A stretch of 22,948 nucleotides of DNA, from NCBI GenBank assembly GCA_964438165.1, contig CAYTJV010000045.1, positions 1 to 22,948 on the forward strand, in the 5' to 3' direction. Of this stretch, positions 588 through 22,623 are shown piece by piece. Source of the DNA: an uncultured Planctomycetaceae bacterium. Lineage in GTDB: Bacteria > Planctomycetota > Planctomycetia > Pirellulales > Thermoguttaceae. Position 1 is the first letter of the stretch. Each line of letters opens with the position of its first letter. The notes below the pieces were generated by a model that had not been told where the DNA came from, searched no databases, and was given only the letters and a program-made list of their open reading frames with translations. The translations under genes and the position numbers were made by a program.

Positions 588-621
588 AAAACTTCCGAAG
601 TCTCGAAGACTTCGGAAGTTT
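588..621. repeat. Copy 1 of a 33-bp perfect palindromic element (AAACTTCCGAAGTCT-CGA-AGACTTCGGAAGTTT), flanked by an A-run and a T-run. It sits 33 nt downstream of the holA-like stop, consistent with a bidirectional intrinsic-terminator-like hairpin (15-bp stem, 3-nt loop).
   Basis: Read directly from the sequence. The same 33-mer recurs in inverted orientation at 11401-11433 and 21738-21770. It is stop-free in all six frames, which is why the ORF track reads through it as TSEVFETSEVF. Confidence 0.85.
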
Positions 622-754
622 GCGATCTTGTCATGGCGGACGGATTCGAGTATGATCCGCCCCCTCGTCTGCGGGAAGTCGTCTCGTGAGCTTGCCAAGA
701 CTGATCGTCATGGGTTTGCGATCCGCGCCGTACATCGGTCCGTGCCGTCGAATC

Positions 755-817
755 GTAGGGCAAGCTGCCAGCTTGCCGCGGTGCTGCCCACGGGCAAGCT
801 GGCAGCTTGCCCTACGA
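755..817. promoter_or_regulatory. Long inverted repeat made of two ~24-bp arms (CGTAGGGCAAGCTGCCAGCTTGCC … GGGCAAGCTGGCAGCTTGCCCTACG), each arm itself a near-perfect palindrome (GGCAAGCTG-C/G-CAGCTTGCC). It lies immediately 5' of the proposed lipoprotein start and is a candidate operator or RNA switch.
   Basis: Read directly from the sequence. Both strands translate to the mirrored peptide RRASCQLA…KLAACPTI in the ORF track, which reflects the palindrome. The function is inferred. Confidence 0.4.
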
Positions 818-2371: not shown

Positions 2372-2463
2372 ACTGCCTCACGTGCGATGCCCGGTAGGCA
2401 GCACGTCGAGACCACTACCAACAATCGCCCCATCGACACATCTTGTCCAACCGCGCTTTTCTA

Positions 2464-2954: not shown

Positions 2955-4688
2955 ATGGCTCACCAGGATTCAGTCCCGACTCGGCCACAGGGAGGCGGAA
3001 CAGGGTTGCTGTCTCAGCACGGGCGCAACCTGGCGTGGTACGCGAGCGCCTGGGTGGCGCTTTTCATCGTGACGATCTTGCTCCACAGATCGCGCCGCGA
3101 GGCTGAAGTGGCGGCGACCGTTGTTCCCTCGCCTCCCGAATCCAGCACTCTCAAAGAGACCACTGTTTCCACTCGCGGGGACGAGGCGAAAGGCGATGAA
3201 CAGACCCAGAGCGACTGGCTGGGAAGCGGGCCCGTCGTCCAGATGCCTCCTCTGACCGAGCAGCGAGCGGCCATGCCGAGCGAAAACGAGCAGAAAACGG
3301 CCACCGCGTCTCTCCAACGGGACCAGGACGATCTCTTCGGGCGCAGATTCTCGGAGACAGAGCAGGAATACCGTGCGAGAGCGGCCGGGGGCTCGTACCA
3401 ATTGGCGACGCTGCTGAACCTCGACTCGCACCGTCGGTTTGTTCTTTTGAATCTGGCATGGCAGAACGCGGCTGTCAGCGGCGACGGCGCGCTTGCCCTC
3501 CGGGCCGCGGAGGACCTGACCGTGCAGTTTCGCTGGGATCCGATGAAGGCCAAGCTTCAAACCATCGAGCTTCTGGCAAAGTCCTACCGCGGCCGCGAGA
3601 ATTCCCGCAACGAAATAATCGCGACATTAATGAGTCAGCGCGACAAAGAAGAGGCCGCATTGGAGAGGCAGCGCGACAGAGAAAAGGCCGCGGCGAGCGC
3701 CTGGCCCCTGATGGCTTTCGTGGAAGAAGTGATGGGCGAGCGCGAGTACTATAACGCTCAGCAAGTCTGCAAATTAGCGGGCGATTTCAGTTACGAATCG
3801 TGGGACCAGCAAGCCCGTGAACGCTTCGCCACCCTGTCGGCACGGGTCGAGAAGGCCGTCGCCGAGCAGGCTGCTTTCCCGGAAGCGTTGGCATCGCTGG
3901 CAGAGAAAGCCCACGATCCGGAAGCCTCTTGGGTCGCAGGGCGCCACCTTTGCCTGGTCTTGGACAAGTGGCACGAGGGCCTTCCTTACCTGGCTCACGT
4001 CGCCGACAAGGACATTCGCGGCGCGGCGCTGCTCGAACTCGACCCCGCGCCGAAGAAGCCCCAGCAGCAAATCCTCTTGGGCGAAAAGTGGCGCCGTGCA
4101 TCCCAATCCCACGAAGGGATGGAGCGGGAATGCCTGATGCTCCGCGCCATCCTCTGGCACCGACGGGCCCGGTCCCGACTCGACGAGGGCCCGGTTCGAG
4201 GCAAGCTGGACCAGCGTCTGGAGGAGATGCTCCAGGAAATCGACCGACTCGCCGCGCTCCCACGCGTCTTTCCGCTGATCTATCCGCTGAGCAGGGTCGG
4301 GTACTGGAACCCCAAATTCGTCGCGCAGGAGCCGACAGTCCTGCACTGGGACATCACTCCTTTCGTCACTCTTTCAGGAAGATACGCAGTATGGCTCCAA
4401 TGCGGCAACGGCGCTCATCCCCTGCGGGTCGAGTGGGTGGTTCTCGGGCAGGACGGGAAAGACGGGAAGGAAATCAGCCGACACGTCAATCCTTCGGTCG
4501 CGGAGGGCGGCAAAGCGTGGCCTCAGTATACGATCGCGCTGGAGACTCCTGAGCCCGGCAAGCAATACGGCCTCTACGCTCGCGTCGAGGCAACCGGCAC
4601 GGCCCCGCACGGCTGTGTGCGGATGAAATACCTGGGTCCGCAGACGCCGGCTCCGTCGGCGCCCGGAGCGAGCGACACAAAACCTTAG
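2955..4688 (+). CDS. Hypothetical membrane-anchored protein (one N-terminal TM helix, charged coiled-coil segment, C-terminal globular region)
   Basis: A GAGGAG ribosome-binding site at 2941-2946 lies 8 nt before the ATG at 2955 (MAHQDSV…). A TM helix reads LAWYASAWVALFIVTILL. The ORF-track start at 2898 would overlap the STAS gene. No family is recognised. The gene ends 2 nt before the convergent gene at 4691. Confidence 0.6.
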   Translation: MAHQDSVPTRPQGGGTGLLSQHGRNLAWYASAWVALFIVTILLHRSRREAEVAATVVPSPPESSTLKETTVSTRGDEAKGDEQTQSDWLGSGPVVQMPPLTEQRAAMPSENEQKTATASLQRDQDDLFGRRFSETEQEYRARAAGGSYQLATLLNLDSHRRFVLLNLAWQNAAVSGDGALALRAAEDLTVQFRWDPMKAKLQTIELLAKSYRGRENSRNEIIATLMSQRDKEEAALERQRDREKAAASAWPLMAFVEEVMGEREYYNAQQVCKLAGDFSYESWDQQARERFATLSARVEKAVAEQAAFPEALASLAEKAHDPEASWVAGRHLCLVLDKWHEGLPYLAHVADKDIRGAALLELDPAPKKPQQQILLGEKWRRASQSHEGMERECLMLRAILWHRRARSRLDEGPVRGKLDQRLEEMLQEIDRLAALPRVFPLIYPLSRVGYWNPKFVAQEPTVLHWDITPFVTLSGRYAVWLQCGNGAHPLRVEWVVLGQDGKDGKEISRHVNPSVAEGGKAWPQYTIALETPEPGKQYGLYARVEATGTAPHGCVRMKYLGPQTPAPSAPGASDTKP

Positions 4689-4690: not shown

Positions 4691-6028
4691 TCAGGCTTCG
4701 ACGACCACGAATTCGCAGCCCGCGTCGGTCCAGGTATCGGGCGGCATTCGCTCCAAGGCGAGGCCCGCGCTTCTTAGACGTTCGATGGCCTTGTCGGCGC
4801 GGCCTTGCGGATCCAACAGGGCAAAGGGCCCGACTCCGGCGAACACGTCGAGCGGCTGGAGCGTGAACAGGGCCCGAATCCGCTCGATTCCCGGCGGGCT
4901 CCCGACGACCCACTCCCGGCTCTCGTCCGGTCCGTTCAGCCCCACCGGCGCGCCGGTCCGCAGCCGGTAGTTCTCCAACAGCACGTACACCTGCCCGCTC
5001 GTGCCCAGGTCGAGCAAGGTGAGATAACAGTCGCGGTCGGTCTGGGCGTTGAGCGTGAACCGCTCGCCGATGCGAAACCAATCGCGGCTGGTCCGCGGCA
5101 CGGTGACGATGTCCCGGCTGGTGGGCCGGTTGCTGCGATCGGTCCAAATCCTGCCCGAGAAGGTAGGCCGGGGCTGCGCGACGCGGTTGATGGCGTGGAC
5201 GAGCGCCTCGGGCTGACGCGACGAGTCGACCTGCTTCGCCTTTTGCGTAAAGGCGTCCTGGCGAACCGCCTCAGCGCAGAGTTTGCAGTGCCCCGGCACA
5301 CTCTCGTCCTCGTGTTTGCGGCAGACCGTCTTGCGGCAGCGGGAGCAGGCAAGCCCCTGGTCGGCCGCGACCGGGCGCCCGCACTGGCCGAACCCGCACG
5401 CCGTGCGCTGCTCCGCACCCGCCGGACGCAGGGCAATCGGCTCCCAGCGGCACTCCGGCGCGGAAGCGGCCTCGTTCCCGAGGCCGAAACTCAACAGGTC
5501 CTTCACGTCGCTGCCGTACATCTCCTTGAGCTGCGAGAAATCGAGATGGATTCCGCCTTCGATGCGGACGCCCGCGCCCTGGCGGTGTCCCTCTTCGTCG
5601 ATCCGCACGAAGAAACTGCGGTCCGGGCACTCGAACGCCACGCCCTCTTCGGGCTTGCCGGCGGGGGTGACGACCACCCGCAGCGTCTCGACGGGCAGGT
5701 CGCCCGCGATGCCCGGCCGAAAAGGGAAGCTCAGCACCAATGGCTCGCCCCGCCGGCCCAACCGGCAGTATTGCTCCAGTTCGCTCGGCTCCTGCTCCAC
5801 GTACTTGCCGCGCCCGTGCAGCAGGAGCCGCACGGTCACGTCGCAGTCCGCGTCGGCCACGCGGGTCGCGCGCAGGCGAAGCTGGCACAGGCTGCCCCGC
5901 ACGTGAGGCCGATGCGTCTCCACCTCGAGCACGACCTCCGCCGATGCGCCGAGCGGGCGCCCGCACTCGCTGCAAAACGACGCCCCCGGTTCGGGCACGG
6001 CTCCGCAATGACCGCACGCCAGGTCCAT
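4691..6028 (-). CDS. Zinc-ribbon protein with a DUF4384-like C-terminal domain (last gene of the minus-strand ESCRT-like operon)
   Basis: An AAGGAG ribosome-binding site precedes the ATG. The N-terminus has CxxC…CxxC (MDLACGHCGA…CSECG), with a second Cys cluster mid-protein (CGFGQCG…CSRCRKTVC…HCKLC). The C-terminus (DCYLTLLDLGTSGQVYVLLENYRLRTGAPVGLNG…) resembles DUF4384, which is often fused or adjacent to kinases and caspases. The DUF4384 call is from memory. Confidence 0.6.
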   Translation of the reverse strand: MDLACGHCGAVPEPGASFCSECGRPLGASAEVVLEVETHRPHVRGSLCQLRLRATRVADADCDVTVRLLLHGRGKYVEQEPSELEQYCRLGRRGEPLVLSFPFRPGIAGDLPVETLRVVVTPAGKPEEGVAFECPDRSFFVRIDEEGHRQGAGVRIEGGIHLDFSQLKEMYGSDVKDLLSFGLGNEAASAPECRWEPIALRPAGAEQRTACGFGQCGRPVAADQGLACSRCRKTVCRKHEDESVPGHCKLCAEAVRQDAFTQKAKQVDSSRQPEALVHAINRVAQPRPTFSGRIWTDRSNRPTSRDIVTVPRTSRDWFRIGERFTLNAQTDRDCYLTLLDLGTSGQVYVLLENYRLRTGAPVGLNGPDESREWVVGSPPGIERIRALFTLQPLDVFAGVGPFALLDPQGRADKAIERLRSAGLALERMPPDTWTDAGCEFVVVEA

Positions 6029-6040
6029 TGCGACTCTCCT

Positions 6041-7942
6041 TCACTGGAAGAACCGGTGTCCGCAATTGTCGCAGAACTTCGATCCGCTGGGGATCTGACG
6101 GTGGCAGGTCGGGCAGACGACTTGCGGACCCTGTTGCACAGGGCCGGGGGCGCCGGCCTTCGCGGCCGCCACGTCGGCCAGGCGGTCCATGCTTTGCCCG
6201 GCCATGGCCTGCACATCGCGGGCGTGCTCGCGCTCCTTGGCCGCCGCGGCTCCGGCCACCCGCTCCATCGAGCCCATCGCCTTTTCCATGACCCGCTCCA
6301 GCCGGTCGGCTTCGGATTCCTTGCCGGCGAGGATTTTTTCGTACAGGGCCTTGACCTCGGCGCTTGCCCCGGCCTGGACCTGGGCCTTGGCACGCTCGGC
6401 AATCGCCGCCGCCACCTGCGGCGAGTCCTTGGCCACCAGGGCCAGGATCTGGTCCGGGCTAAGGTCCTTCATCACCTCGGTTTTCTTCAGATCCGCCGCC
6501 AGCCGAGTCTGCTCCGCCTCGGAAAGGGCATGAATCCGCTCCAGCTCCCGCTTCGCCTCACGGTCCTTGGCCTCTTGCTCGCGGGCGATCCGCTGGGACT
6601 CCTCTTCGTGATCCAGCGCGACCTTCTTCTCGCGCAACCGCATACCCAATTCTGCCTTGCGTTCGACGATACGCACGTCGGCCTCGGCCTCGGCGATTCG
6701 CTCGTCGCGGCGGCCCTCGGCAACGCGTCGCTCGTGTTGTACCTTCTCCCAGTCGGCCTCCTGCCGGGCACGGAGATCATCCCGCCCGTACCGGATGCGG
6801 TTCTCCAACTCCGCGTCGGAAAGGGCGTGACGCTGGCGGAGCACGGCCAAGTCGTGCTCCAGATCGAGCTTCTCCAGCATGTGCCTCCGCGCCACATCCG
6901 CGTCTTCCCGCTTCTCGGTGAAGGTGCGCCGCAGTTCCTCCATTTCGTCGGCGCGGACGAGGTCCTTGAGGCCCAGCTCGTGCTCGGTCTGACGCACGAA
7001 ATCTTCGAGCTCCTTCGCCGACGAGAACTGATTCATGCGGTCCGCGGTGAGCGTTTCGCGCAGCCGGCGGTTGAGCGCTGCCCGGCGATCGGCGTCGTCG
7101 GCCCCTGCCTCGGCGAGGCAGGTTTCGCCGCGGCGATCGCGAAGGGCTTCGTAGGATCGGCACGCCACGTGCAACGACCTGAGCGCCACAAGCTCCAGGC
7201 CGCTGCGCCGCAGGGCAGGCTCGATCCGCTGTCGCAGGTCGTTTTCCAGCGCGGCCTTCCACTGTGGATCGGCATTGAGATCGGCAAGCGATGCCTCTTG
7301 GACGCGGGCCCGAACCGTGTCGGCGCACGCGCTGCGCACCAGGTCGGCCACCGCGGCCTTGGGGAGGCTCTCCCGGCCGTGCACCAGGTTGGTGAAAAAG
7401 GAGAGCGGGTCGGCCACGCGCACCACGACCTCGGCCGTCAGGTCGGCAACGACCTCTTCCCGGGTGCGGAGGTCCCGGTACTCAAGCCCCAGCGCGGTGT
7501 CGCCCGCGTCGACGAGGATCGCGCTCGCCGGCGCGGCGAGGTTGAGTCGGGCCGGCAGCCGGGCCAGGTCATAGTTCCCGGCGGAGACCACCGCGGCCAG
7601 CGCGCCGCGTTGAAACACGAGGGCCTGCGTGCCCGGCTCGACCACCAGACGCCGCCGGAACAGCCCGCGAAGGTCGGCGGCTTCGATCCGGCGGGCGAAC
7701 TCGTCGCCGGAGCGACTCCAACGGTTCAGGGCGTCGACCGGCGCCGGCTCGTCGTCGCTGCGGCCCGCGGAAGCGCCGCAATGGCTACACAACTTGGCGT
7801 CGGCCTTCAAGGGCTTACCGCAGGCGGCACACGTGCCCTGGCTGGAGGGAATGGGTCGGCCGCAGTGCGGACAAAAGGCCGCGCCCCAGCGGACCTCCTT
7901 GCCGCAATCGAAATGGGGACACTGGCGGGAGAGAATGCCCAT
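6041..7942 (-). CDS. Flotillin/SPFH (band-7)-like protein with N-terminal and C-terminal zinc ribbons and a long Glu/Arg/Ala-rich coiled coil
   Basis: The start is taken at the internal Met (MGILSRQCPHFDCG…), because the upstream extension is Arg/Trp-rich junk. The N-terminus has three CxxC pairs. An SPFH-like core reads VVEPGTQALVFQRGALAAVV…AILVDAGDTALGLEYRDLRTREEVVADLTAEVVVRVADPLSFFTNLV. A flotillin-like EA-rich coiled coil follows, and the C-terminus has CPTCH…CDNCG. It is a paralogue of the protein at 17005-18933. Confidence 0.6.
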   Translation of the reverse strand: MGILSRQCPHFDCGKEVRWGAAFCPHCGRPIPSSQGTCAACGKPLKADAKLCSHCGASAGRSDDEPAPVDALNRWSRSGDEFARRIEAADLRGLFRRRLVVEPGTQALVFQRGALAAVVSAGNYDLARLPARLNLAAPASAILVDAGDTALGLEYRDLRTREEVVADLTAEVVVRVADPLSFFTNLVHGRESLPKAAVADLVRSACADTVRARVQEASLADLNADPQWKAALENDLRQRIEPALRRSGLELVALRSLHVACRSYEALRDRRGETCLAEAGADDADRRAALNRRLRETLTADRMNQFSSAKELEDFVRQTEHELGLKDLVRADEMEELRRTFTEKREDADVARRHMLEKLDLEHDLAVLRQRHALSDAELENRIRYGRDDLRARQEADWEKVQHERRVAEGRRDERIAEAEADVRIVERKAELGMRLREKKVALDHEEESQRIAREQEAKDREAKRELERIHALSEAEQTRLAADLKKTEVMKDLSPDQILALVAKDSPQVAAAIAERAKAQVQAGASAEVKALYEKILAGKESEADRLERVMEKAMGSMERVAGAAAAKEREHARDVQAMAGQSMDRLADVAAAKAGAPGPVQQGPQVVCPTCHRQIPSGSKFCDNCGHRFFQ

Positions 7943-7994
7943 AGTCTCGTGCCTTTCACTGAGAAACGCTGAAGGACGGCCTGGAAAGGCCGTC

Positions 7995-8837
7995 TTACAC
8001 GATTTCTTCCATCTTGTCGAGCACCACCCAGTTGTATGCCAAGGCCGTGACCGCAGCCGCAACCAGCAGCAGGGCCGCCCAACCACGTTCCAGTTGGAAG
8101 CCCATCATGGCGTATGCGGCCGCGGTCCCCACGAAGGCGAGTCCCAAGAGCAACCCCAAGTTCACCGCGTTCGACTGGCGAGCCAAGGCTCGATGAAGCC
8201 ACGGCGCCAGCGCCAAGGGGAGCAGCAGGACCAGCGCCAGCCACGCCACCAATCGTATCGGCCAGGCGTAACTGGTGACCCTCGCGGCCGCCTGCGATCG
8301 CCCGCGATCGTGTACGACCTCGGCAGTCAGGCTCACCGGTTGTGATGGCTCGCGGGTCTCAACCAAGATCGCCTCCAGGACGGCTTCATCCCGATCGGTT
8401 CGGGCGGCCAGGCTGCGCACGCGGCCGGCCACCAAGTACTCGCTGTCGAGCCGACTGCCGGCCGCCGTGACGGCCGCCTCGAGGGCCAGTTCGTCGTTTT
8501 CGATGCCCAGCTCGCGCTTCACGTTTTCCCAGAGGGATGCCGGACGGACCGCGTATCGACCCGCGCGATCGATCGCCCGGCGCACGGCTTCCGTCACCAC
8601 GCCCGTGGGATCGCTTTCGAACCGGGCCACGACCAACGAGGGCCTTCCCGACGGCGCCGCGGGCAATCGCTCGGCAAGCTGCCGGGCTGCGTCCTCGACC
8701 AGGGCTCGGCGGGCAGGATCGAGCGGCAACGGACGGGAGCGGACCAGCATCCACCCTTGCGCGATCACGACCAGCACCACACCCAGCCGGGCCAACCCCG
8801 TGCCGGCGCGAATCAGTCGGCCGAGCCATCTGAACAT
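7995..8837 (-). CDS. Hypothetical polytopic membrane protein (N-terminal signal-anchor helix, soluble middle domain, about three C-terminal TM helices)
   Basis: The start is taken at MFRWLGRL (GGGAG ribosome-binding site 8 nt upstream). The ORF-track N-terminal extension would overlap the upstream gene. Hydrophobic segments read LARLGVVLVVIAQGW and WPIRLVAWLALVLLLPLALAPWL…LGLLLGLAFVGTAAAYAMMGF…ALLLVAAAVTALAY. Confidence 0.55.
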   Translation of the reverse strand: MFRWLGRLIRAGTGLARLGVVLVVIAQGWMLVRSRPLPLDPARRALVEDAARQLAERLPAAPSGRPSLVVARFESDPTGVVTEAVRRAIDRAGRYAVRPASLWENVKRELGIENDELALEAAVTAAGSRLDSEYLVAGRVRSLAARTDRDEAVLEAILVETREPSQPVSLTAEVVHDRGRSQAAARVTSYAWPIRLVAWLALVLLLPLALAPWLHRALARQSNAVNLGLLLGLAFVGTAAAYAMMGFQLERGWAALLLVAAAVTALAYNWVVLDKMEEIV

Positions 8838-8850: not shown

Positions 8851-9441
8851 CTACGGCTCCCTGCGCATTTCTTCCTCGATCCGCCGCAGCCCGTCGGAGA
8901 TCTGTCCGTCGTCGCCGGAGGCCTCGTCGGCAGCGGCCTCGGTGACCATCTGGTGGGCCAGTTCGCCGAGCTTCCGCTCGTCGAGATCGCGGGCGTCGAA
9001 GAGACTGCCGGCACTGGTTTCCATGGCCACCGAGAGGACTTCTTCGAGGGCCTCCGACTTCTCCACGGCGCGGGCCATTTTGGCCTGCACGTCGGCCACT
9101 TGCTCCGGCGTGGCGCCGCGGAGGATCGAGTTGGTCATCGCCAAAATGCTCTTCAGAAAATCGCCGGTGGCGGCGACCTCGTCGCGGCGCACGCCGAGCG
9201 TCTCCAGTTGCAGCAAGTACCGCTCCCAGCGGCTGACGTGCTCGCGAGCGCGCAGGACCGCCGCGGCCAGTTGCTCGAATTGCTCGCGGTCGCCCAGGCG
9301 GAGGGCCTGCTTGCCCAGTTGCCAGTAGCGCTGCTGCACCTCGCGGGCACTGCGCATGAACCGCTGGATGCGCGTGATCCCCTGGCGGATTTGGATTTTC
9401 GCCTCCAGCTCCCGCTGCTGCCTCGATTTGAACAGTCCCAT
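8851..9441 (-). CDS. ESCRT-III/CHMP/PspA-superfamily-like coiled-coil protein
   Basis: 197 aa from the internal Met. The N-terminus MGLFKSRQQRELEAKIQ… resembles eukaryotic CHMP (MGLFGK…) and PspA (MGIFSRF…) N-termini. The protein is predicted all-helical and charged. The acidic C-terminus ends in an MIM-like stretch, SDGLRRIEEEMRR. The ORF-track upstream extension translates the intergenic hairpin and was rejected. Confidence 0.55.
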   Translation of the reverse strand: MGLFKSRQQRELEAKIQIRQGITRIQRFMRSAREVQQRYWQLGKQALRLGDREQFEQLAAAVLRAREHVSRWERYLLQLETLGVRRDEVAATGDFLKSILAMTNSILRGATPEQVADVQAKMARAVEKSEALEEVLSVAMETSAGSLFDARDLDERKLGELAHQMVTEAAADEASGDDGQISDGLRRIEEEMRREP

Positions 9442-9463
9442 GGTCCGGTCATCTCCGATCCTT

Positions 9464-9524
9464 AGTAGCAGGCACACTCCGTGTGCCGTCCGCCGGCTAC
9501 GGCACACGGAGTGTGCCTACTACT
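9464..9524. promoter_or_regulatory. Nested-palindrome hairpin. The arms AGTAGCAGGCACACTCCGTGTGCCGT / ACGGCACACGGAGTGTGCCTACTACT are separated by 9 nt, and each arm carries a 17-bp self-palindrome GGCACAC-NNN-GTGTGCC. It spans the stop codon of the AAA ATPase and the 5' leader of the ESCRT-III-like gene.
   Basis: Read directly from the sequence. The ORF track shows the mirrored peptide TAHGVCLLL on both strands. Confidence 0.5.
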
Positions 9525-10683
9525 TTGCGCACAACGACTCATACCGCTTCAAGGTCTCCGGCGGCGTATCGGGCCGCAGTTTGGCCAGCGCCGACTCGAA
9601 GTCGTCCCAGCGGAGCGGGCGCGTGGCAAGCTGGTACTTGCTCAGATCGGCGTCGCCGCGGGCGACCCGCTCGACGAGCTTCGGGTTGGCGTCGCCGATC
9701 ATCGTTTCCACGGCCACGGCGGCCAGGTGGGCGAGCTGCCGACCGCTCAGCCCCTCCGACCGCGCCACGAGGCTCTCCAAAGGGAAGCTCAGCGTGTGTC
9801 CCCTCCGCGTCAAATGAATTTCCAGGATTTGCCGTCGAGCAGCAGGATCGGGAAGGGGCACGTAAACGCGGCGTCCGAAACGGCTCAGCGCCGCCGGGTC
9901 CATGAGCCAGGGGGTGTTGGTCGCGCCCAGGGTGAACACGGGCGGGCCGTCTCCGCTGGCAGCGACCCCGCTCAGCTCGGCCAAGAGCGTGGAGAGGACC
10001 TGGCGCTCGGCAGCGCCGGAGGAAAGCTCTCGCGAAGCGAACAGGGCATCGAGCTCGTCGATGAAGACCAGCGAGGGGGCCCGCTGGCGCGCGACCGCGT
10101 AGAGCGTGGCAACCAGCCGGGCCGATTCGCCAAACCACTTGGAGAGCACGGCCGCCGCGCCGACGTTGAAGAACGTGGCGCCCAGCCCGCGGGAAGCGGC
10201 CGCCGCCAGGAGCGACTTGCCCGTCCCCGGCGGACCGAACAACAGGATGTTGCGAATCGGGTCGATCCGCACGCCGGGCGGTTTCTCGGCCACGGCCAGC
10301 CCAAAGGCCAACTGGATCTGCCGCTTCGTCTCCTCCAGGCCGCCGATGTCCTCCCATCCCACCGCGGCCCGCATGATGAGGGCCTCGACCTGGCCTCGGA
10401 GCTCCTGGTCGCCAGACGCGGGTTGTGGGATTGGGCCGGACGGCGGCGCAGGTCGTTGCTCCGAGAGGCGCTGAGCGAGGCTTTCCAGGTTGCGTACACG
10501 GGCCGTTCGCCGCGATCGTTCGGCGGGGCTGACCGCGTACTGGGCATACGCCCGTGCCAGCCCCGCCGCCTCGCGGTAGACGGAGGCGGCTCGTCCCGCC
10601 TCCCCGCCGGCGCGAAGCTCATCGGCCCGCCGGAGGGTCTTGCGAAGCGACTCGTCGATGCTGCGGCTCAAGTCAACGTTCAT
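9520..10683 (-). CDS. Vps4-like AAA+ ATPase (MIT-like N-terminal domain plus a meiotic-clade AAA domain)
   Basis: The start is taken at MNVDLSRS, with GAGAGGAG immediately upstream. The N-terminal ~75 aa form a three-helix MIT-like pattern (SIDESLRKTLRRADELRAGGEAGRAASVYREAAGLARAYAQYA…RSRRTARVRNLESLAQRL) that aligns by eye with the yeast and human Vps4 MIT domain. Walker A is GPPGTGKS and Walker B is LVFIDELD. The meiotic-clade signature ATNTPWLMDPAALSRFGRRVYVPLPD matches the Vps4 stretch ATNIPW.LD.A.RRRFE.RIYIPLPD. The C-terminal helix …DFESALAKLRPDTPPETLKRY is Vps4-like. Confidence 0.75.
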   Translation of the reverse strand: MNVDLSRSIDESLRKTLRRADELRAGGEAGRAASVYREAAGLARAYAQYAVSPAERSRRTARVRNLESLAQRLSEQRPAPPSGPIPQPASGDQELRGQVEALIMRAAVGWEDIGGLEETKRQIQLAFGLAVAEKPPGVRIDPIRNILLFGPPGTGKSLLAAAASRGLGATFFNVGAAAVLSKWFGESARLVATLYAVARQRAPSLVFIDELDALFASRELSSGAAERQVLSTLLAELSGVAASGDGPPVFTLGATNTPWLMDPAALSRFGRRVYVPLPDPAARRQILEIHLTRRGHTLSFPLESLVARSEGLSGRQLAHLAAVAVETMIGDANPKLVERVARGDADLSKYQLATRPLRWDDFESALAKLRPDTPPETLKRYESLCAK

Positions 10684-10694
10684 CGCACTCCTCT

Positions 10695-10773
10695 CGTAGC
10701 TTGGCTCTCCAGAGCCGAGCAAATACGGTCAACATCGCGGAAAAATCGCTCGGCTCTGGAGAGCCAAGCTACG
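10695..10773. promoter_or_regulatory. Nested-palindrome hairpin. The arms CGTAGCTTGGCTCTCCAGAGCCGAGC … GCTCGGCTCTGGAGAGCCAAGCTACG have a ~28-nt loop, and each arm contains the self-palindrome GGCTCT-CC-AGAGCC. It occupies the junction between the Snf7-like stop and the ATPase ribosome-binding site and start.
   Basis: Read directly from the sequence. It has the same two-level palindrome architecture as 9464-9524 and 755-817. Confidence 0.5.
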
Positions 10774-11435: not shown

Positions 11436-13721
11436 TTACCCCTTCTTATACAACACCGTGCCGACGTCTTTCATCGACTCGCAGACGCACAGGCCCTCGG
11501 CCGCGAGGATGCGGCAGACCTGGTCCGCTGCCTTGCGGCTGATCCCCAGTTGCTCCACGAGCGTCGCCAGGGCAATCGAAGCGTGCTCGGCGAAATGCCG
11601 CCCGATCCATTGCCGCGCCCGCTCCAGCACGGCCGCGCTGACGTCGGCAGAGAACGCCTCGCGCCATGCCGCCAGACGCTCATCCGTTTCCGCCCAGCGG
11701 AAACGCGCTCGATCGCGGTCGTAGAGCACGACGCTCACCAGCCGGTCGCGGAAGGGCCGCGGCCCCGCGCCGCTGGCCATCTGGAGGGCCTCGTCCGTCC
11801 ATCCGGTCGGGCTGGCGAGGATGACCAAACGCCACGTTTTTTCGTCGGCCGCCTGGCGCGCGATCCGATTGAGCAACGACTCCAGTTCCGTCGCGGCGAC
11901 CGGCTGATCGTCGTAACCTTCGGCGGCGAAGCGGCCGGCGTGCAGCACGCTTCGGGCCTCGACCACCACGCGGGCCGTGGTTTTCCACAGCCCGCGCTGC
12001 CGCACCTCGTACACCATTCGGTCCCCCGACGGGCCGTGAATTCCCGCACGGCGCGACGCGTCCGACACGGCCCCGGCCGCGCTCGAGTCGTCATCCGCGG
12101 CCCTTCGGGTGCGCCGCTGGGAAAAGTCGCCCACGGAAATCACGGCCTGCCGCACCGGGTCCACCACCTCGGAGACCTCCGCGAGCGCGTTCTCCACGAC
12201 ACGGAAAAACGTCTCCTCGGCCAATTCCGCATCCGCAGCGGAAACGGCGGGCAGGGTGGCGGCCTGCGCGGGGGCTGGCTTCTGCTCGACCACTTCGGCA
12301 GGATCGCGGGGCAAGTCGCGGGCAACCGGCGGCGGGCTGGCCGCTGGCGCCGCATGCGCGCGGCAGCGCCGCACCTTCCCCGCTCGCCAACAGGCAGAGC
12401 ATATCGATGCCCCGCAGACCTCGCAGGTCCCCGCACTGCTGAGCTTTGAGAGCATGGGCTTGCCGCACGCCGCGCAGCGGTCGAACGACGCATTCCCACT
12501 CGGCCGTCCCGCCTCAACGGCGCGAACTCGCTGTTCGGGCACTCCGGGAGTCTGAAGCGGCAGGGTGGCATCGTGTCCGGCCAGGTACGCGTCGATGGCC
12601 TGAATGAAGTCCTCGGCCGTCTGGTACCGCTGCTGACGCTCGCGCGCCATGGCGCGGCGGATCATGTCGCCCAGCCGGCGCGGCACCGCGGGGTTGAGCT
12701 GGCAGGCGTCGGGCGGATCCTCCTCGCGGATCCGCCGGATCACGACGTACGGATCCGATCCCGCAAACGGCACCGCCCCCACGAGCATCTCGAACAGCAT
12801 CGTCCCCACGGAGAACAAGTCGCTCCGGCCGTCGAGGTCGCGCGTCCCGGCAGCCTGCTCAGGCGACATGTAGCTCGGGCTCCCCAGGACGGTTCCCTCC
12901 ATGGTCTGTTGGCAGGCATCGGCCATGCCGCGGGCCAGCCCGAAGTCGGCCAGCTTCGCCGTCCCCGTGGCGTCTTCCAGGATCACGTTGCCCGGCTTGA
13001 CGTCGCGATGGATCACGCCTTGCGCGTGCGCGTGGCCCAGGCCGGCGAGGACCTGGCGACACAGGGCCAGCGCCGCCGGCGGGTCGAGGCGGCCCTCTTC
13101 GGCGATCCGCGAGGCCAGCGAGCGGCCCTCGACGTACTCCATGTCGATATAGGGCATATCGTTCTCGATCCCCACCGAGTGTACCGCCACCACGCTCGGG
13201 TGCTTGAGTTTGGCCGCGGCGCGGGCCTCGCGGAGAAAGCGTTCGCGGGCTTCGGGGTCGTGGAGCCGCGAGGGGGCCATGAGCTTGAGGGCCACGGTCC
13301 GCTGGAGCGTTCGGTCGACGGCCTGGAGCACGACGCCCATCGCCCCCATGCCCACCAGCGCGATCACGTCGTAGGAGCCTAAGCTGGCGATGTACTTCGG
13401 GTCTTGGGGCAAGTCCAACAACAGGCCGCCGGCCACGACAACCCGGTCGCCGCGGACCTCCACGTGCGGAAATCGTGGGAAGTGCGCGGCGCGGATGGCC
13501 TCGAAATCGGCGTCGTGGGCCGGAGCGTCCTGGCCGATCAAGGCGGCCAGCTCGTCGGTCGGCCCCATGGCCTCGTCGAAGCGCTTTCGGCAAAGGGCGC
13601 AGCCGTCGAGGTGTTTCTGCACCTGGGCCTCTTCGTAAGCCCTGGCCAGTCCGGCCGCCACGCGGGTCAGGACGTCGGGTGAGGGGCACTGCGGGGAATG
13701 AGCCGACTGGGGTTCAGACAT
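11436..13721 (-). CDS. Fusion of an anti-sigma factor (ZAS motif) with a Hanks-type Ser/Thr protein kinase, plus a C-terminal zinc-ribbon and unknown domain
   Basis: The start is taken at MSEPQS…, 2 nt after the sigma-factor stop. The N-terminus carries HLDGCALC (an H-x3-C-x2-C zinc anti-sigma motif). Kinase motifs are ALKLM, HRDVKPGNVIL, DFGLAR and SPSYMSPEQ. A later CAACG…CEVCGASICSAC forms a zinc ribbon. The C-terminal ~250 aa are of unknown family. Confidence 0.8.
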   Translation of the reverse strand: MSEPQSAHSPQCPSPDVLTRVAAGLARAYEEAQVQKHLDGCALCRKRFDEAMGPTDELAALIGQDAPAHDADFEAIRAAHFPRFPHVEVRGDRVVVAGGLLLDLPQDPKYIASLGSYDVIALVGMGAMGVVLQAVDRTLQRTVALKLMAPSRLHDPEARERFLREARAAAKLKHPSVVAVHSVGIENDMPYIDMEYVEGRSLASRIAEEGRLDPPAALALCRQVLAGLGHAHAQGVIHRDVKPGNVILEDATGTAKLADFGLARGMADACQQTMEGTVLGSPSYMSPEQAAGTRDLDGRSDLFSVGTMLFEMLVGAVPFAGSDPYVVIRRIREEDPPDACQLNPAVPRRLGDMIRRAMARERQQRYQTAEDFIQAIDAYLAGHDATLPLQTPGVPEQRVRAVEAGRPSGNASFDRCAACGKPMLSKLSSAGTCEVCGASICSACWRAGKVRRCRAHAAPAASPPPVARDLPRDPAEVVEQKPAPAQAATLPAVSAADAELAEETFFRVVENALAEVSEVVDPVRQAVISVGDFSQRRTRRAADDDSSAAGAVSDASRRAGIHGPSGDRMVYEVRQRGLWKTTARVVVEARSVLHAGRFAAEGYDDQPVAATELESLLNRIARQAADEKTWRLVILASPTGWTDEALQMASGAGPRPFRDRLVSVVLYDRDRARFRWAETDERLAAWREAFSADVSAAVLERARQWIGRHFAEHASIALATLVEQLGISRKAADQVCRILAAEGLCVCESMKDVGTVLYKKG

Positions 13722-14301
13722 CGATCTGCTCCACCGCTTCACGGAGCTTGGCCAGCACGCGCGACTTGCCCACGTACACGTTGCCGACGGTCGTCTGCAA
13801 TTGTTCCGCAACCGTTTCCGGCGGGATCCCGTTGAGCACCGAGCGGCGGAAGGCCTCCCACGTGAGCGGCTGCACGGCCGCGCGCACCCGCTTCATGGCG
13901 ATCTCCAACACCCGGCGCCGATGCTCCTCCTCCACCCACGCCTCCACGGCCTGGCCGGAATCGGCAATCCCGGCGACGATCCGAACGTTGTCCGACCCGC
14001 CCGGCGCCGACGGCTTGCGGGCCTGTCCGTGGAAGTGGCGATACGCGCGGTGGCGGGCGACCGTGCTGAGCCAAGCGCGGAACGACTTGCTCGGATCGTA
14101 CTCGAACGGCTTGCGCGCGATGCGGTTCATCACGATCTGCATCACATCCTGCTGCAAGTCGAGGGCGTCCTGGTACGCCACGCCCATCCGCAACAGGACC
14201 CGCAACACCAGCGGCCCATACAACTCCACGAACTCCTGCCAACTCGCCTGGTCGCCGAGATTCCGCACGCGCAACAAGAGACTGGGCCGAGTTCTTTCCA
14301 C
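13714..14301 (-). CDS. ECF (group IV sigma-70) RNA polymerase sigma factor
   Basis: Region 2 and region 4 motifs read …RPSLLLRVRNLGDQASWQEFVELYGPLVLRVLLRMG…DLQQDVMQIVMNRI… and …VLEIAMKRVRAAVQPLTWEAFRRSVLNGIPPETVAEQLQTTVGNVYVGKSRVLAKLRE. The start is proposed at GTG 14301 (VERTRPSLL, with GGAAGG 8 nt upstream). An in-frame ATG at 14463 would add an Arg/Cys/Gly-rich leader and is less likely. The gene is translationally coupled to the kinase gene. Confidence 0.7.
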   Translation of the reverse strand: MERTRPSLLLRVRNLGDQASWQEFVELYGPLVLRVLLRMGVAYQDALDLQQDVMQIVMNRIARKPFEYDPSKSFRAWLSTVARHRAYRHFHGQARKPSAPGGSDNVRIVAGIADSGQAVEAWVEEEHRRRVLEIAMKRVRAAVQPLTWEAFRRSVLNGIPPETVAEQLQTTVGNVYVGKSRVLAKLREAVEQIDV

Positions 14302-14684
14302 CCCGGGCGCCTTCCAGCCGTTCGGGCGAGTTGCTCTCAGAGGCTGCCCGGAAACGGGGCCGGGCCCCCTACATCGTGTGCGAGGTCGAGCCCCGACACA
14401 CAACCGGGAGCCAGTCCCCGTTTCCGAACCGTCTCTCACTTCCTTCCCGCAAAGCGCGATCATTCTAACCGACCCAGACCTGTATTTGCAGGGGGTGCGT
14501 TCACCTGCCGCTTCCGCGTCGGCACGTTCCGAAGAGCCATGCAACGATGACTAGCCCGGGAAGTGAAGAATCTTACACGAAAAACCTGGGAATGGCGTGG
14601 GAGCGGACTGCCCCCAGCGGCCGAGGAGCGGCAAGACAGGGGGGAGGCGAGACGCCGCCAAGCCAGAAGCAAGGAATCGCTCGC

Positions 14685-16924: not shown

Positions 16925-17002
16925 TTCAGGGTTCGGGGTTCGGGGGTCGGGATTCCCGTTCAAGCGTCTCCTCCGAGTCCTGAACCCTGAACCCCGAACC
17001 CT
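16925..17002. promoter_or_regulatory. Imperfect inverted repeat built from tandem G-tract heptamers (AGGGTTCGGGGTTCGGGGGTCGGGATTC … GAGTCCTGAACCCTGAACCCCGAACCCT). It lies between the SPFH-paralogue stop and the kinase start and is a candidate terminator, attenuator or G-quadruplex element.
   Basis: Read directly from the sequence. There are four G-runs of 3-5 on one arm and the complementary C-runs on the other, with an ~18-nt loop. Confidence 0.4.
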
Positions 17003-18933: not shown

Positions 18934-18943
18934 CGCAAAATCC

Positions 18944-20770
18944 TTAACTCGCTGCGGGAGTCGAAGTCATGTTGGGAGCCAGATATTGTGCGTCATCCAC
19001 GGGAGTGGGCAGGATCTGCCAAACGATCCGGTGGCGACCGCCGAGCACGCACGCTTGCTGCGGAGCCAAGATCTGCCAGGCCCCGTCCGATGAACACGCC
19101 AACAACTCGGGGCCGCGCTGGGGGTCCCGTTGCCAGGCTAGCCACAACACCGGCGCTTGATTTCCGGGCGGCACAAACGCCACGGGGAACCGGCCGTCGG
19201 TCAAGAGGTAACTGAGTTGTTCCGCGAGCGTATCGTTTCGGTACAGCCATAAGGTGTGTACGTGGCCGTCACACGCCTGGAGCCGCACCTGAAAGGGCAC
19301 CACCTGGGCCGGCTCCAGCCGGTCGTCATCGGCCAGCAGGCACGGCGCCGCTCTGGGCAGTCGCTCCCCGTTCACCCAGGTGCCGTTCGTGCTCCGGTCG
19401 GCGGCCCAGGCGCGGTCATCGCGCAGCTCCAGCGAGGCGTGACACCGCGACAAGCGGCCGTGTTGATGGGCGTCATAGGGCGAGGGGCGAAGCCACCAGG
19501 CGACGGCCGGATCTCCGCCCCGGCCGAGACTTGCCGACGCTCCGCACACTGCCGAGATTGCATGCCGCAGGCCCGTGTGCTGATCGTATACCCATACCGC
19601 CGCTTGCGCGCGGGCCCCGGCGGGCCAGCCGTGCTCCGACGCAGAGGCCGGCACGTTCCAACCGGCGGGCTCAGGACACGCGCCGGCCAGGCGACGGATG
19701 AAGGCATGGTCGGGTTGCAGCTCCAGGGGCTGCCAGCCGCCCGCACTGCCCAATCCACCGAGGCCCAGGTCAAACCCCTGGGGGCCCGACATCGGCGGAG
19801 CGCCCCCCACGATAAACACGTCGCCGCCCGCGTGAATCTCCTTCTTCTCCTCGTCCTCGATATTGATCACCCAAGAGGCGGTCCAGCGTCCCAGCGGCAA
19901 ATTGGCAGGCGTCTTGACCGTCAGGACGAACCGCAGGGAATCGGCCCCCGCCCATTTCGGCACGAACCGCAGGGCCTGGAACTCCTGCATCTGGCCGGAG
20001 ATCAGCCTGGTTTGAAACGCCCCAGGCGCAGACAACAACTCGGAGCCGACGTTCAACTCCACCACCGATTCCGACGAAAGATGCTCGCCGCGCACGCGAA
20101 CACGAAGCAGGCTTTGCTGGTTCTTCCGGTATTTGCCGGATGCTTCGACTTCCACGCACACCGGTCCGCCGCCAACGCCGAGGGTGGGGATCGTCAGCGG
20201 GCCGGCAAACCCGCCGGGGATCGACGGCATGGCGGGCATCGGCGGCATGGTCGGCATCGTCCCTGGGCCAGCGCCCGGTTGCACGACCGGGCGCCCGGCG
20301 GATTGCACAGGCAGACGATTCGCCGCTGCCGACGCCTCGCTCGTGGACTGGGGGGCGTCTCCGGCTTGGAATAGGGTAAGCATCTCCTCGTACTTGCCGG
20401 TCGACTGAGGCGATTGAGGCAACTGGGGCGTCGTCTTCCGCGGTGGGGCCGCCGCCGTGGCCGAGTCCCCGGAAAACAGGGACAGCATCTGATCGAAAAC
20501 CTTGCTCTGGCCGGCTCCCTGGGATAGCCCTTCGGATGGTCCCGCGGCGGCAGGTTGCGGATCGGCGGCCGCCGGCTTAGAGAGCGCATCCCGCGACGGC
20601 CCTTCGACCGCGTCTCCGCAAGAGGGGCAGAAGCTGACGTCAGGGGGGAAGGTGAGCGTGCATTCCGCTTTCCGACAGAACGCGACCCCTTCGCCACAGG
20701 CCGGACATTGCCCCGCACCGAAGGGGACGGGACTGCCGCAAGCATAACATTCGTACTCTTGTCCGCTCAC
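18944..20770 (-). CDS. Zinc-ribbon / FHA-domain protein
   Basis: The N-terminus is YECYACGSPV…CPACGEG…CPSCGD. A long Pro/Ala/Gly-rich linker with MPxMP repeats follows. The C-terminal FHA pattern reads LGRGGDPAVAWWLRP…SRCHASLELRDDRAWAADRSTNGTWVNGERLP. The start overlaps the stop of the upstream gene by 4 nt (ATGA). Confidence 0.7.
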   Translation of the reverse strand: MSGQEYECYACGSPVPFGAGQCPACGEGVAFCRKAECTLTFPPDVSFCPSCGDAVEGPSRDALSKPAAADPQPAAAGPSEGLSQGAGQSKVFDQMLSLFSGDSATAAAPPRKTTPQLPQSPQSTGKYEEMLTLFQAGDAPQSTSEASAAANRLPVQSAGRPVVQPGAGPGTMPTMPPMPAMPSIPGGFAGPLTIPTLGVGGGPVCVEVEASGKYRKNQQSLLRVRVRGEHLSSESVVELNVGSELLSAPGAFQTRLISGQMQEFQALRFVPKWAGADSLRFVLTVKTPANLPLGRWTASWVINIEDEEKKEIHAGGDVFIVGGAPPMSGPQGFDLGLGGLGSAGGWQPLELQPDHAFIRRLAGACPEPAGWNVPASASEHGWPAGARAQAAVWVYDQHTGLRHAISAVCGASASLGRGGDPAVAWWLRPSPYDAHQHGRLSRCHASLELRDDRAWAADRSTNGTWVNGERLPRAAPCLLADDDRLEPAQVVPFQVRLQACDGHVHTLWLYRNDTLAEQLSYLLTDGRFPVAFVPPGNQAPVLWLAWQRDPQRGPELLACSSDGAWQILAPQQACVLGGRHRIVWQILPTPVDDAQYLAPNMTSTPAAS

Positions 20771-22623
20771 TGCGACCGCTCCTCCACGTCACAGATCAGC
20801 CGCACGCCCAGGTCCCCGGCCCGGGTGCGCTTGCACATCGACAGCCTCGCAGAGACCCGCAATTCCGCGGGCGACCGGGATCGCCAACTCCCGCCTCGCA
20901 CCGTGCGGGCCTCTCCGCTCAAAACGCCACCGGCGCTCATGACTGTCCCGGGGGCGATCGGCCCATAGGCGCTGCTCGTCCACTCCCAGACATTGCCCAA
21001 CACGTCGATCAGCCCCCACGGATTGGCCCGCGATGGATCGGCGGGCCGGGGCCCGTCGCCAGCGAACACAGCGGGAGGACACGGGCCGAGCGGCTTCGCG
21101 GGGCCTGCTTCGGCCGCGGACGGGTCGCGGTCCGAGCCAACGGGTCGAGAACCGGCGCCGGTCGCCCACCAGGACGAACCGCTCGTCCCGGCACGCGCCA
21201 TGTACTCCCATTCGGCCTCGGTGGGCAATCGGTACCGGCGACCGTCCAGACTGTGCATCCAGGCGCAAAGCACCTCGGCATCGGCGAGGCTGAGGTCGAC
21301 GGCCGGCAGGCCGTCCGCGGCCACTGTCCCCCGGCACTGCGACGCAAACGAGCGGTCGCGCCTCAGCGCGTCCTCGGCCGGGTCGCAATCCACCGACAAG
21401 GAGTCGAGGAAACGCCGCACCACGGCGACGGTCAGCGGAAACTCCGCGGCCCAGAGATCTTGCTCGATGGCCATCTTCAGCCGCGGCAGCTCGTCGGCCC
21501 GCGCACTCCCGTCCCCGGGCGATGCTCCGAACACGAACGCCCCGCGACGAATGAGGTGAAATCGAATCCCCAGCGCATTGGTCCATGGCGACTTGACCGC
21601 CTCAACCTGCTCGCGCTGGCTCGGCCGGGACCGCTGCTCAGTGGCAATCGCTCCTGAGGGCGCCGCCACGGAATCCGAAGCCGGTGAACGAAGTGGAACC
21701 GTACCGACACGTAGGTCAGGCTTTCCATGACGAACGTAAACTTCCGAAGTCTTCGAGACTTCGGAAGTTTGTGGATGGGCTCCAAGTGGAACCGCACCTA
21801 CGTGCTTGAACCGCAGGCGCACGGGCTGACCGTGGACTTCCACGTAGGGGCGTTGCGCTTCGGCCTCAGGTAGCTCGCGCCACGCGCTACTGTGCATCCG
21901 CTCCCCCACTGCCTCGCTGAGGTCGGTGACGGCCAACTCGCCCCCCTGGAATTCGCGCAAGTATCCGAGAAGGTGATAACAGAACCAACCGTGACCGGCG
22001 ACGGGGTATTCGTACGACCGCTGCCCTTCCCAACAGGCACTGATCACCGAGCGAAGCTGGCGCCGATGGCCACCGACATCCGCCCGCGCGCGATCGTCCT
22101 TGGCCAAGGCGCGAATGTCGCGAGCCATGGCCGCATTCAGCGCGTCGCTCTCAACGCTCCGCGCCAGCGCGCGGGCATCGTTTCGACATGCATCCAGAAT
22201 CACCAGTTGTTGTCCCGCGCTCAGATGGCGCGTGTAATCGCGGAGGATTTCCAGCGAAATGGCGGTGTCGCGCAAGAGCAACTCGGAGGCCGGCTCCGAG
22301 TCTGCGGTCAGCAGGTAGGTTCCCTCACCCAGCGAAAATCCATGGCCGGCAAAATAGAGAAGGAAGGTATCTTCGGGGCCCATGGGCGCCTTCGAGAACT
22401 TGTCGAGGGTGCGAAGCACCTCGGGCCTCCGCGGGACTTCGGCGCCGGGACGTGCCGGCGACGTGAGCATCAAGCACCGATCGTCGTCGAGGTCCATTCG
22501 CTGGCTCAACAACTCCCGCACCGCGAGCACGTCGGCCACAGCGAACTTGAGGGGCTGGACTGCTCGGCTCGCGTACTCGTTGACTCCGATCAACAGCACG
22601 TACAAGCGGCCACCAGTGCTCAT
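20767..22623 (-). CDS. Caspase (peptidase C14)-like domain fused to an FGE/SUMF1-type (formylglycine-generating-enzyme-like) domain
   Basis: AGGGAG ribosome-binding site 5 nt before the ATG. The N-terminal caspase-like His/Cys dyad is LYVLLIGVNEY…YFAGHGF…LVILDACRND. The C-terminal FGE-domain motifs are RLPTEAEWEYMARAG, GNVWEWTSS and VRGGSWRS. The 33-bp palindrome copy 3 lies in-frame in the linker, so a two-gene interpretation cannot be excluded. Confidence 0.65.
   Translation of the reverse strand: MSTGGRLYVLLIGVNEYASRAVQPLKFAVADVLAVRELLSQRMDLDDDRCLMLTSPARPGAEVPRRPEVLRTLDKFSKAPMGPEDTFLLYFAGHGFSLGEGTYLLTADSEPASELLLRDTAISLEILRDYTRHLSAGQQLVILDACRNDARALARSVESDALNAAMARDIRALAKDDRARADVGGHRRQLRSVISACWEGQRSYEYPVAGHGWFCYHLLGYLREFQGGELAVTDLSEAVGERMHSSAWRELPEAEAQRPYVEVHGQPVRLRFKHVGAVPLGAHPQTSEVSKTSEVYVRHGKPDLRVGTVPLRSPASDSVAAPSGAIATEQRSRPSQREQVEAVKSPWTNALGIRFHLIRRGAFVFGASPGDGSARADELPRLKMAIEQDLWAAEFPLTVAVVRRFLDSLSVDCDPAEDALRRDRSFASQCRGTVAADGLPAVDLSLADAEVLCAWMHSLDGRRYRLPTEAEWEYMARAGTSGSSWWATGAGSRPVGSDRDPSAAEAGPAKPLGPCPPAVFAGDGPRPADPSRANPWGLIDVLGNVWEWTSSAYGPIAPGTVMSAGGVLSGEARTVRGGSWRSRSPAELRVSARLSMCKRTRAGDLGVRLICDVEERSQ
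21738..21770. repeat. Copy 3 of the 33-bp palindromic element, located inside the caspase-FGE ORF (in-frame, 11 codons, translated as TSEVSKTSEV)
   Basis: An exact core match to copy 2. It sits between the caspase-like and FGE-like domains. Confidence 0.85.

Follow-up and report, generated by a model that had tools for sequence, protein, structure and literature searches.

Background

The closest described systems are the repetitive extragenic palindromic (REP) sequences and their inverted doublets (REPINs), together with RAYTs, the tyrosine transposases that are associated with REPs, as known from the REPs and bacterial interspersed mosaic elements (BIMEs) of E. coli with the enzyme TnpA-REP (PDB 4ER8) and from the REPINs of Pseudomonas (PMC3116915, PMC6006769). 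Canonical REPs are marked by a GT[AG]G or CGTC tag that stays unpaired (PMC3733652, PMC6006769), and REPs have been described as species-specific in a published survey (PMC6006769). Here we report on a perfect palindrome of 33 nucleotides (nt), hereafter the 33-mer, which is present three times in a stretch of 22,948 nt (the window) from an uncultured Planctomycetaceae bacterium (GenBank assembly GCA_964438165.1, contig CAYTJV010000045.1, positions 1 to 22,948). We consider it very probable that all three copies belong to a repeat of the REP type, best described as a minimal REPIN, that is served in trans by a RAYT.

This interpretation is based on a set of likenesses to the known systems. Like REPs, the 33-mer is a short hairpin, mostly extragenic and biased to the 3' side of genes, with many dispersed copies in related genomes; as in the arrangement termed REPtron, a Y1/HUH RAYT gene of other genomes is flanked by the repeat; as in REPINs, an inverted doublet forms the hairpin and singlets are rare; and, as in REPs and REPINs alike, there is no target-site duplication, and related RAYTs are accompanied by a repeat spelling of their own. 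The 33-mer differs from REPs and REPINs in that it has no unpaired 5' GT[AG]G guide, in that it is a perfect 33-nt palindrome with palindromic arms, far shorter than a typical REPIN, and in that the same spelling is found in several phyla, beside RAYTs that are 37-84% mutually identical.

A second group to be compared are the TIRtrons/TIRYTs, i.e., RAYT-like genes in terminal inverted repeats (TIRs), some of which are self-complementary, with moderate repeat families (Di Nocera 2013, PMC3733652). TIRYTs have been equated with TnpA-Y1 subclass 2.1 (PMC6006769), a subclass for which no REP-like sequences were reported in that survey; its manual REP table also holds no AGAC-type element. The system described here shares with TIRYTs a RAYT-like gene with motifs fitting subclass 2.1 and flanking repeats that are self-complementary, untagged and also present elsewhere in the genome. 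On the other hand, the published TIR consensus (GGGGWSAS) is unrelated to the 33-mer, and a C-terminal helix-turn-helix or DnaA-like domain was not detected by Pfam in the RAYTs linked to the 33-mer. In-frame REP inserts in open reading frames (ORFs) and in tnpA-REP genes have already been described (PMC3733652; subclass 2.4, PMC6006769). A literature search on the sequence of the 33-mer returned unrelated primer matches only, and a search on RAYT or REPIN combined with Anaerolineae, Caldilinea or Gemmata returned nothing relevant. The kind of element is thus known; the 33-mer family itself, its nested perfect symmetry and its constancy across phyla appear not to be described in the literature searched.

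The palindrome in the window

A prior interpretation of the window from its letters alone (the sequence-only reading) had reported a palindrome of 33 bp with three identical cores that differ only in orientation. A pattern search for AAACTTCCGAAGTCT-NNN-AGACTTCGGAAGTTT confirmed this, with perfect matches at positions 589-621 (copy 1), 11401-11433 (copy 2) and 21738-21770 (copy 3); the start given for the first copy, 588, was one base early. None of 100 dinucleotide-preserving shuffles of the window matched the 33-mer, even with up to 3 mismatches allowed; no copies are expected by chance. All three copies have the 15-bp stem and the 3-nt loop that had been proposed. The loop reads CGA in copy 1 and TCG in copies 2 and 3, copy 1 being the reverse complement of the other two. 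The predicted folding energy of the hairpin is -21.6 to -23.6 kcal/mol as RNA (z -5 to -7) and -15.2 kcal/mol as DNA.

The symmetry of the 33-mer is nested. It consists of two inverted 15-nt units with 3 nt between them, one arm being the reverse complement of the other, with a difference at the centre base only (C, then G), and each arm is itself a 7-N-7 palindrome of 15 nt (AGACTTC-C/G-GAAGTCT), which is present in the window genome as a variant with AAA/TTT at the outer positions. The runs of A and T that had been noted as flanks are mostly these outer three stem pairs (AAA/TTT), with extra A's at copy 1 only. Translation showed, as reported, that the 33-mer has no stop codon in any of the six frames; in one frame per strand it is read as TSEV(S/F)(K/E)TSEV. 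The remark that such a sequence is invisible to ORF finders was a fair one; the reading frame continues across copy 3, and TSEVxxTSEV stretches derived from the 33-mer are present in many proteins of the databases.

A comparison of the flanks of the three window copies found no similarity and no target-site duplication, in agreement with the earlier observation that none was obvious. The sequence-only reading had also offered a REP-like or MITE-like genome repeat (a MITE being a miniature transposable element with inverted repeats). The first half of this suggestion stood, given the dispersal of the repeat, its depletion in coding sequence and between divergent genes, and its position at RAYT genes (see below). 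The name MITE is a poor match, as the 33-mer has 3 nt between its arms and a total length of 33 nt, as compared to an internal region of about 70-300 bp, and has no target-site duplication.

Occurrence and sequence constraint in other genomes

We scanned a collection with one genome per species for the exact 27-nt core with a free loop, and at least 116 genome pieces matched; together with the window, these pieces contain 127 exact copies. Among the matches listed, about 77 pieces were from Chloroflexota (mostly Anaerolineae), 18 from Planctomycetota and 16 from one unclassified metagenome-assembled genome (MAG); the remaining pieces listed represented Saprospiraceae, Lewinella and Kapaibacterium (Bacteroidota being among the phyla named), Poribacteria and Moduliflexus. 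As the GC content of the pieces ranges from 0.33 to 0.71, the carriers are truly different genomes. Single genomes can hold many copies, with 19 copies over 16 pieces in one MAG and 6 pieces in a Gemmataceae MAG. The usual full form of the family is AGACTTCCGAAGTCT-NNN-AGACTTCGGAAGTCT; the AAA/TTT outer variant of the window was also found in the Gemmataceae MAG.

These data bear directly on one alternative, i.e., that the three copies reflect a local duplication or an assembly artefact confined to the window contig. Three identical copies spaced about 10.3-10.8 kb apart would be compatible with such an origin. However, their flanks share nothing, and the 33-mer is present in hundreds of independent assemblies, made from short and from long reads, both deep within megabase contigs and, in frame, inside conserved genes. 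Its occurrence in other genomes and the unrelated flanks refute this alternative, to which we assign a negligible probability.

Conservation ends sharply at the edge of the 33 nt, and the sole signal outside it is a C at position -4 in about 49% of 322 half-flanks. The loop is variable and mostly of the form Y-N-R, which suggests that an originally perfect palindrome, with one base at its centre, was later eroded by transitions. Since exact stems were demanded by the scan, the conservation of the stem relative to the loop is partly an effect of ascertainment; the conserved AGA/TCT edges and the copies flanking RAYT genes lie outside the scan pattern. When 13-mer half-sites were located, 105 doublets in C..G order at a spacing of 18 were found, along with 8 solo half-sites, in a sample that was chosen for containing doublets and is thus biased towards them. 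Rare variants alter both arms jointly (e.g., AGACCTCCGAGGTCT-TTA-AGACCTCGGAGGTCT). The flanks of the copies in other genomes showed no target-site duplication, and an Rfam search with the 33-mer returned only generic hairpin matches to miRNA precursors, all far below the thresholds.

Exact copies were also seen in a (pro)phage that resembles siphoviruses and measures up to about 30 kb, with about ten of them, roughly one per 3 kb (L201-L208). The copies sit between structural genes (head-tail adaptor, tape measure), and a RAYT gene is absent from the phage. The IMG/VR contigs UViG_3300006641_000114, 3300025872_000400 and 3300006917_000353 represent the same phage at ≥99.9% identity; the viral contigs, three of four being this one phage, are not independent witnesses.

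Association with RAYT genes

Two of the at least 116 repeat-bearing genome pieces contain a RAYT gene. In a Planctomycetaceae MAG (L038), a RAYT ORF of 198 amino acids (aa) with the motifs MPNHYHVL, SLFQG and YLHLNP is flanked by exact copies of the repeat, one about 27 nt ahead of the start codon and the other about 20 nt past the stop. In an Anaerolineales genome (L007), a homolog of 201 aa is flanked likewise and has, in addition, an internal variant copy that encodes TSEVFKTSEV just past the HUH motif. The two proteins are 42% identical; both match Pfam Y1_Tnp and the NCBIfam model NF047646 ("REP-associated tyrosine transposase"), and their only solved relative is E. coli TnpA-REP (PDB 4ER8). 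The family comprises 6080 database proteins at E ≤1e-10 and is named RayT by several sources.

A further 84 RAYT loci were analyzed, i.e., four homologs on their contigs and 80 loci from a metagenome scan. In 60 of these 84 loci, a perfect hairpin (stem ≥11 bp, loop 3-5 nt) was located in the gene itself or no more than 120 nt away, and nearly all of these hairpins were built as AG[A/C]...[T/C]CT. The commonest spelling was that of the window, which was found at the RAYT gene in L038, L007, L117, L118 and about 15 metagenome loci; other spellings were AGACCTCCGAGGTCT, AGAAACCCGTTTTCT, AGAAACCAGGTTTCT, AGATCCCAGGGTTCT and AGCAGCCCGGCTGCT. The RAYTs with the window's spelling show a mutual identity of 37-84% (median 58%), a spread as wide as that between spelling types. 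These results indicate that the stem stayed fixed while the enzyme diverged greatly. The RAYT motifs (NHYH / FQ / Y[IL]HLNP) fit the consensus of TnpA-Y1 subclass 2.1 (NH[YF]H, FQ, Y[IV]HLNP) in Table 1 of PMC6006769, an assignment made by motif alone; the length of the proteins and the REP inserts within their genes recall subclass 2.4, whereas the motifs fit subclass 2.1.

The presence of a Y1_Tnp gene with hairpins on both sides could also mean that the palindromes are the ends or footprints of an autonomous insertion sequence of the IS200/IS605 type, rather than a REP that is mobilised in trans. We regard this as highly improbable, because the 127 exact copies in at least 116 pieces plus the window compare with a gene in just 2 of those pieces, because the proteins bear the class-2 Y...NP signature (not Y...Q) and match the RAYT equivalog model, and because the flanking repeats are identical self-complementary units and not distinct left and right ends.

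Several RAYT genes are located inside Type I restriction-modification (R-M) operons (L007, 2126-7998; L122; L124, 2-6602; L129, 109-6608; L132). The order is hsdM-hsdS-RAYT-hsdR in L124, L129 and L132, with the RAYT gene co-oriented with its neighbours. The RAYTs of R-M operons are 42-94% mutually identical and thus do not reflect one recent event. In L118-L120, L140 and L151, other RAYTs of the clade adjoin methyltransferases (PglX, MmeI or Type ISP). The density of R-M-like ORFs is 3.0 per 100 kb in RAYT loci as compared to 1.1 per 100 kb in loci with the repeat only.

Placement relative to genes

The copies in the window and the genes next to them are as follows (positions in the window).

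589-621, no strand: copy 1, AAACTTCCGAAGTCT-CGA-AGACTTCGGAAGTTT; intergenic, 33 nt past the stop codon of the holA-like ORF
11401-11433, no strand: copy 2, loop TCG; intergenic, inside a row of minus-strand genes
21738-21770, no strand: copy 3, loop TCG; intragenic and in frame, with the minus-strand reading QTSEVSKTSEVY, about aa 285-296
22-555, plus strand: ORF like the C-terminal domain of DNA polymerase III delta (holA-like), with its stop codon 33 nt before copy 1
10769-11380, minus strand: ORF of 203 aa without a Pfam match, with its start 20 nt downstream of copy 2 in minus-strand direction
11436-13811, minus strand: Ser/Thr protein kinase ORF, with its stop codon abutting copy 2
20767-22623, minus strand: gene that contains copy 3, for a caspase-FGE fusion protein of 618 aa that is identical to database protein P0121

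Two of the copies had been placed exactly at gene ends by the sequence-only reading. This applies to copies 1 and 2, which lie behind stop codons; copy 3 is intragenic, not intergenic. Copy 1 also sits upstream of a GTAG-tagged REPIN (755-815) and of the next plus-strand ORF. Copy 2 begins 2 nt past the TAA (11436-11438) of the kinase ORF and is located 20 nt ahead of the ATG at 11380 of the 203-aa ORF.

The same tendencies were observed over the whole set of copies, with the proviso that genes were called by ORF length only and the placement figures are thus approximate. Open frames of at least 60 codons on both sides surrounded 25 of 126 copies (20%), as compared to 68% of random positions in the same DNA (P about 1e-28). 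Among the 68 intergenic copies for which both neighbours were called, 46 lay between tandem, 16 between convergent and 6 between divergent genes; divergent pairs were under-represented as compared to a background of 19% (6/68; P = 0.017). The median distance to the adjacent stop codon was 29.5 nt, and a quarter of the copies were located within 8 nt of it.

One explanation for a strong hairpin in such positions would be a bidirectional Rho-independent terminator, as the sequence-only reading had proposed, or a hairpin that stabilises mRNA 3' ends, selected for that role. The likeness is evident: the 33-mer forms a stable hairpin, two of the three window copies and many elsewhere sit just past stop codons (at 2-10 nt elsewhere; at 33 nt for copy 1), copies are scarce between divergent genes, and T-runs follow a small number of the copies in AT-rich genomes (L030, L088). 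The stabiliser variant is further favoured by the REPs of E. coli, which stabilise upstream mRNA (background cited in PMC6006769). However, no T-run was found beyond the stem, the base composition being flat over the 322 half-flanks. A terminator scan of the window passed one of the six strand/copy combinations, namely the minus strand of copy 1, where no gene ends, and terminator-like matches were overall as frequent as expected from shuffles. Moreover, copy 3 and many other copies are translated inside genes, and termination needs neither a 30-nt stem that is invariant across phyla nor the flanking of RAYT genes. As the 33-mer differs from Rho-independent terminators in having no U-tract, in its copies within coding sequence and in an invariant stem that this role does not need, a bidirectional intrinsic terminator is not supported as the identity of the element, and we consider selection for either transcript role unlikely. 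A secondary role as a hairpin at mRNA 3' ends is possible.

The symmetry of the duplex also raises the question of an operator, i.e., two 15-bp palindromic sites 18 bp apart that would be bound by a symmetric DNA-binding regulator and define a regulon. Each arm is indeed a 7-N-7 palindrome, the symmetry of the duplex is perfect, and copy 2 is located 20 nt upstream of a start codon. Over the at least 116 loci, however, no neighbouring gene family recurs, the RAYT gene being the only recurrent neighbour; copies are found after stop codons, between convergent genes and inside coding sequence; and the centre bases of the arms are fixed as C and then G, which is relevant to a hairpin and not to two independent dimer sites. 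An operator is, in our view, highly improbable.

In-frame copies inside genes

In the caspase-FGE fusion protein, a linker separates the Peptidase_C14 domain (aa 8-263) from the FGE-sulfatase domain (aa 358-610), and copy 3 is located in this linker. Homologs of this protein (38-53% identity) have both domains on one chain with a variable linker between them, and none contains TSEVxxTSEV. Copy 3 is thus a translated in-frame insert of 11 codons.

Nine long ORFs that span the 33-mer were scanned against Pfam, and eight matched known families. The 33-mer lies inside the span of the matched domain in MetH, GcvP, a Type ISP enzyme, HsdR (L129) and a class-28 methyltransferase, between two domains in HsdR of L064, and beside the single matched domain in a DNA methylase (L011) and an InhA-like protein (L034). 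Alignments of RAYT and HsdR proteins showed an insert of 8-12 residues that is missing in homologs. Of the 15 copies flanked on either side by 100 or more open codons, 10 used the TSEV frame (P = 0.0085), although no other frame is open as rarely over all copies. The preference for the TSEV frame among in-gene copies points to selection at the level of the encoded peptide, and hence to real translation of these copies.

Copies of this kind resemble the Rickettsia palindromic elements (RPEs) and the intra-ORF REPs (PMC3733652) in being in-frame palindromes in functional genes that add a short peptide in loops or linkers, and they resemble the REP inserts in tnpA-REP genes of subclass 2.4 (PMC6006769) in that the 33-mer is found inside a RAYT gene, between or near the HUH and Y motifs. 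They differ from RPEs in being unrelated in sequence, much shorter (11 codons) and read in one clearly preferred frame (TSEVxxTSEV).

Of the eight genes that have Pfam support and an in-frame copy, five code for R-M enzymes or methyltransferases (HsdR of L129 and of L064, Type ISP of L045, the methylase of L011 and the methyltransferase of L104). The insert in HsdR of L129 is placed directly ahead of helicase motif I (TQGSGKT). In three closely related RAYT genes, the same site holds a single 15-mer AGACTTCGGAAGTCT in L122 (about 1220-1240), the 33-mer in L121 and the 33-mer plus 9 nt in L124 (about 3143-3190). These length differences are what slippage between two direct 15-nt units with a period of 18 would produce.

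Proposed mechanism and points that weigh against it

Under the interpretation of the 33-mer as a minimal REPIN, the repeat would fold into a hairpin in single-stranded DNA (e.g., on the lagging-strand template), where it would be recognised, cut and rejoined by a RAYT, an HUH/Y1 endonuclease that would be encoded once elsewhere in the genome. Such action could spread and maintain the copies without target-site duplication. Copies that have entered genes persist if they are in frame, mostly as TSEV..TSEV, and copy 3 is one of these. If the 33-mer acted on transcripts at all (3' hairpin, stabiliser, weak terminator), this would be a side effect. For hairpin formation, cleavage and rejoining, we infer this scheme by analogy with TnpA-REP and the IS200/IS605 enzymes (PMC6006769, PMC3479197).

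Four observations weigh against this interpretation. A search of the 22.9-kb window found no RAYT gene, and the link between enzyme and repeat rests on other genomes. The conserved unpaired 5' GT[AG]G guide is absent, the conserved AGA/TCT being base-paired. Among 208 loci, there was no clean pair of a filled and an empty site; L122 with its single 15-mer came closest, the polymorphisms seen were the 33-mer versus the 15-mer and inserts as compared to more distant homologs, and thus we infer the mobility of the copies, from sequence comparison, rather than observe it. Finally, it is uncommon for a REP that the stem is exactly identical from phylum to phylum, and this is not accounted for if the repeat simply co-evolves with a diverging RAYT.

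Possible role in DNA defence and implications

A stronger version of the RAYT association would be that the hairpin and the RAYT form a domesticated, function-bearing pair tied to DNA defence, and not merely a selfish repeat. This seems to us improbable, although it is left open by RAYTs in hsdM-hsdS-RAYT-hsdR operons (taken here at 42-66% mutual identity), by RAYTs beside BREX, MmeI and Type ISP genes, by the 33-mer within hsdR, Type ISP and methyltransferase genes, and by a (pro)phage with about one copy per 3 kb. If it were true, the invariance of the stem across phyla would reflect functional constraint (e.g., a single-strand DNA handle or a mark of self versus non-self) and not recent transfer.

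For annotation, the REPIN interpretation would mean that a very common sequence of Chloroflexota and Planctomycetota can be given the label REP/REPIN, where it would otherwise be taken for a terminator or silently read through, and that TSEVxxTSEV in database proteins can be flagged as repeat-derived. A large RAYT clade would gain a cognate repeat, though its motifs resemble those of a subclass without any in published surveys, and this repeat would provide a simple and perfectly symmetric substrate, suited to binding and cleavage assays. With regard to evolution, the same 30-nt stem is found beside RAYTs that have diverged to about 40-60% identity, in hosts of several phyla, which conflicts with the usual picture of species-specific REPs and makes the family a test case for the mutual constraint of enzyme and repeat.

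Other features of the window

The window also contains three canonical GTAG-tagged REP doublets, i.e., REPINs, at 755-815, 9465-9523 and 10696-10772, all of which are intergenic. Their units differ (GTAGGGCAAGCTGCCAGCTTGCC, GTAGCAGGCACACTCCGTGTGCC and GTAGCTTGGCTCTCCAGAGCCGAG), and their predicted RNA folding energies are -49 to -61 kcal/mol; as three different units are represented, the source genome bears several REP families besides the 33-mer. Two more long imperfect hairpins are located between genes at 16928-17002 and 14339-14436 (folding energies of -51 and -52 kcal/mol, respectively), the former being made of GGGTTCGGGG-type repeats.

On the minus strand at 8851-10722, an AAA ATPase with a Vps4 C-terminal domain (9520-10722) adjoins a weakly Snf7-like ORF (8851-9507). 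This pair is followed by zinc-ribbon/SPFH proteins at 4691-8086 and has Ser/Thr kinases and a sigma-70 region 2 gene upstream. The neighbourhood at 8851-10722 looks like an ESCRT-III/Vps4-like membrane-remodelling module.

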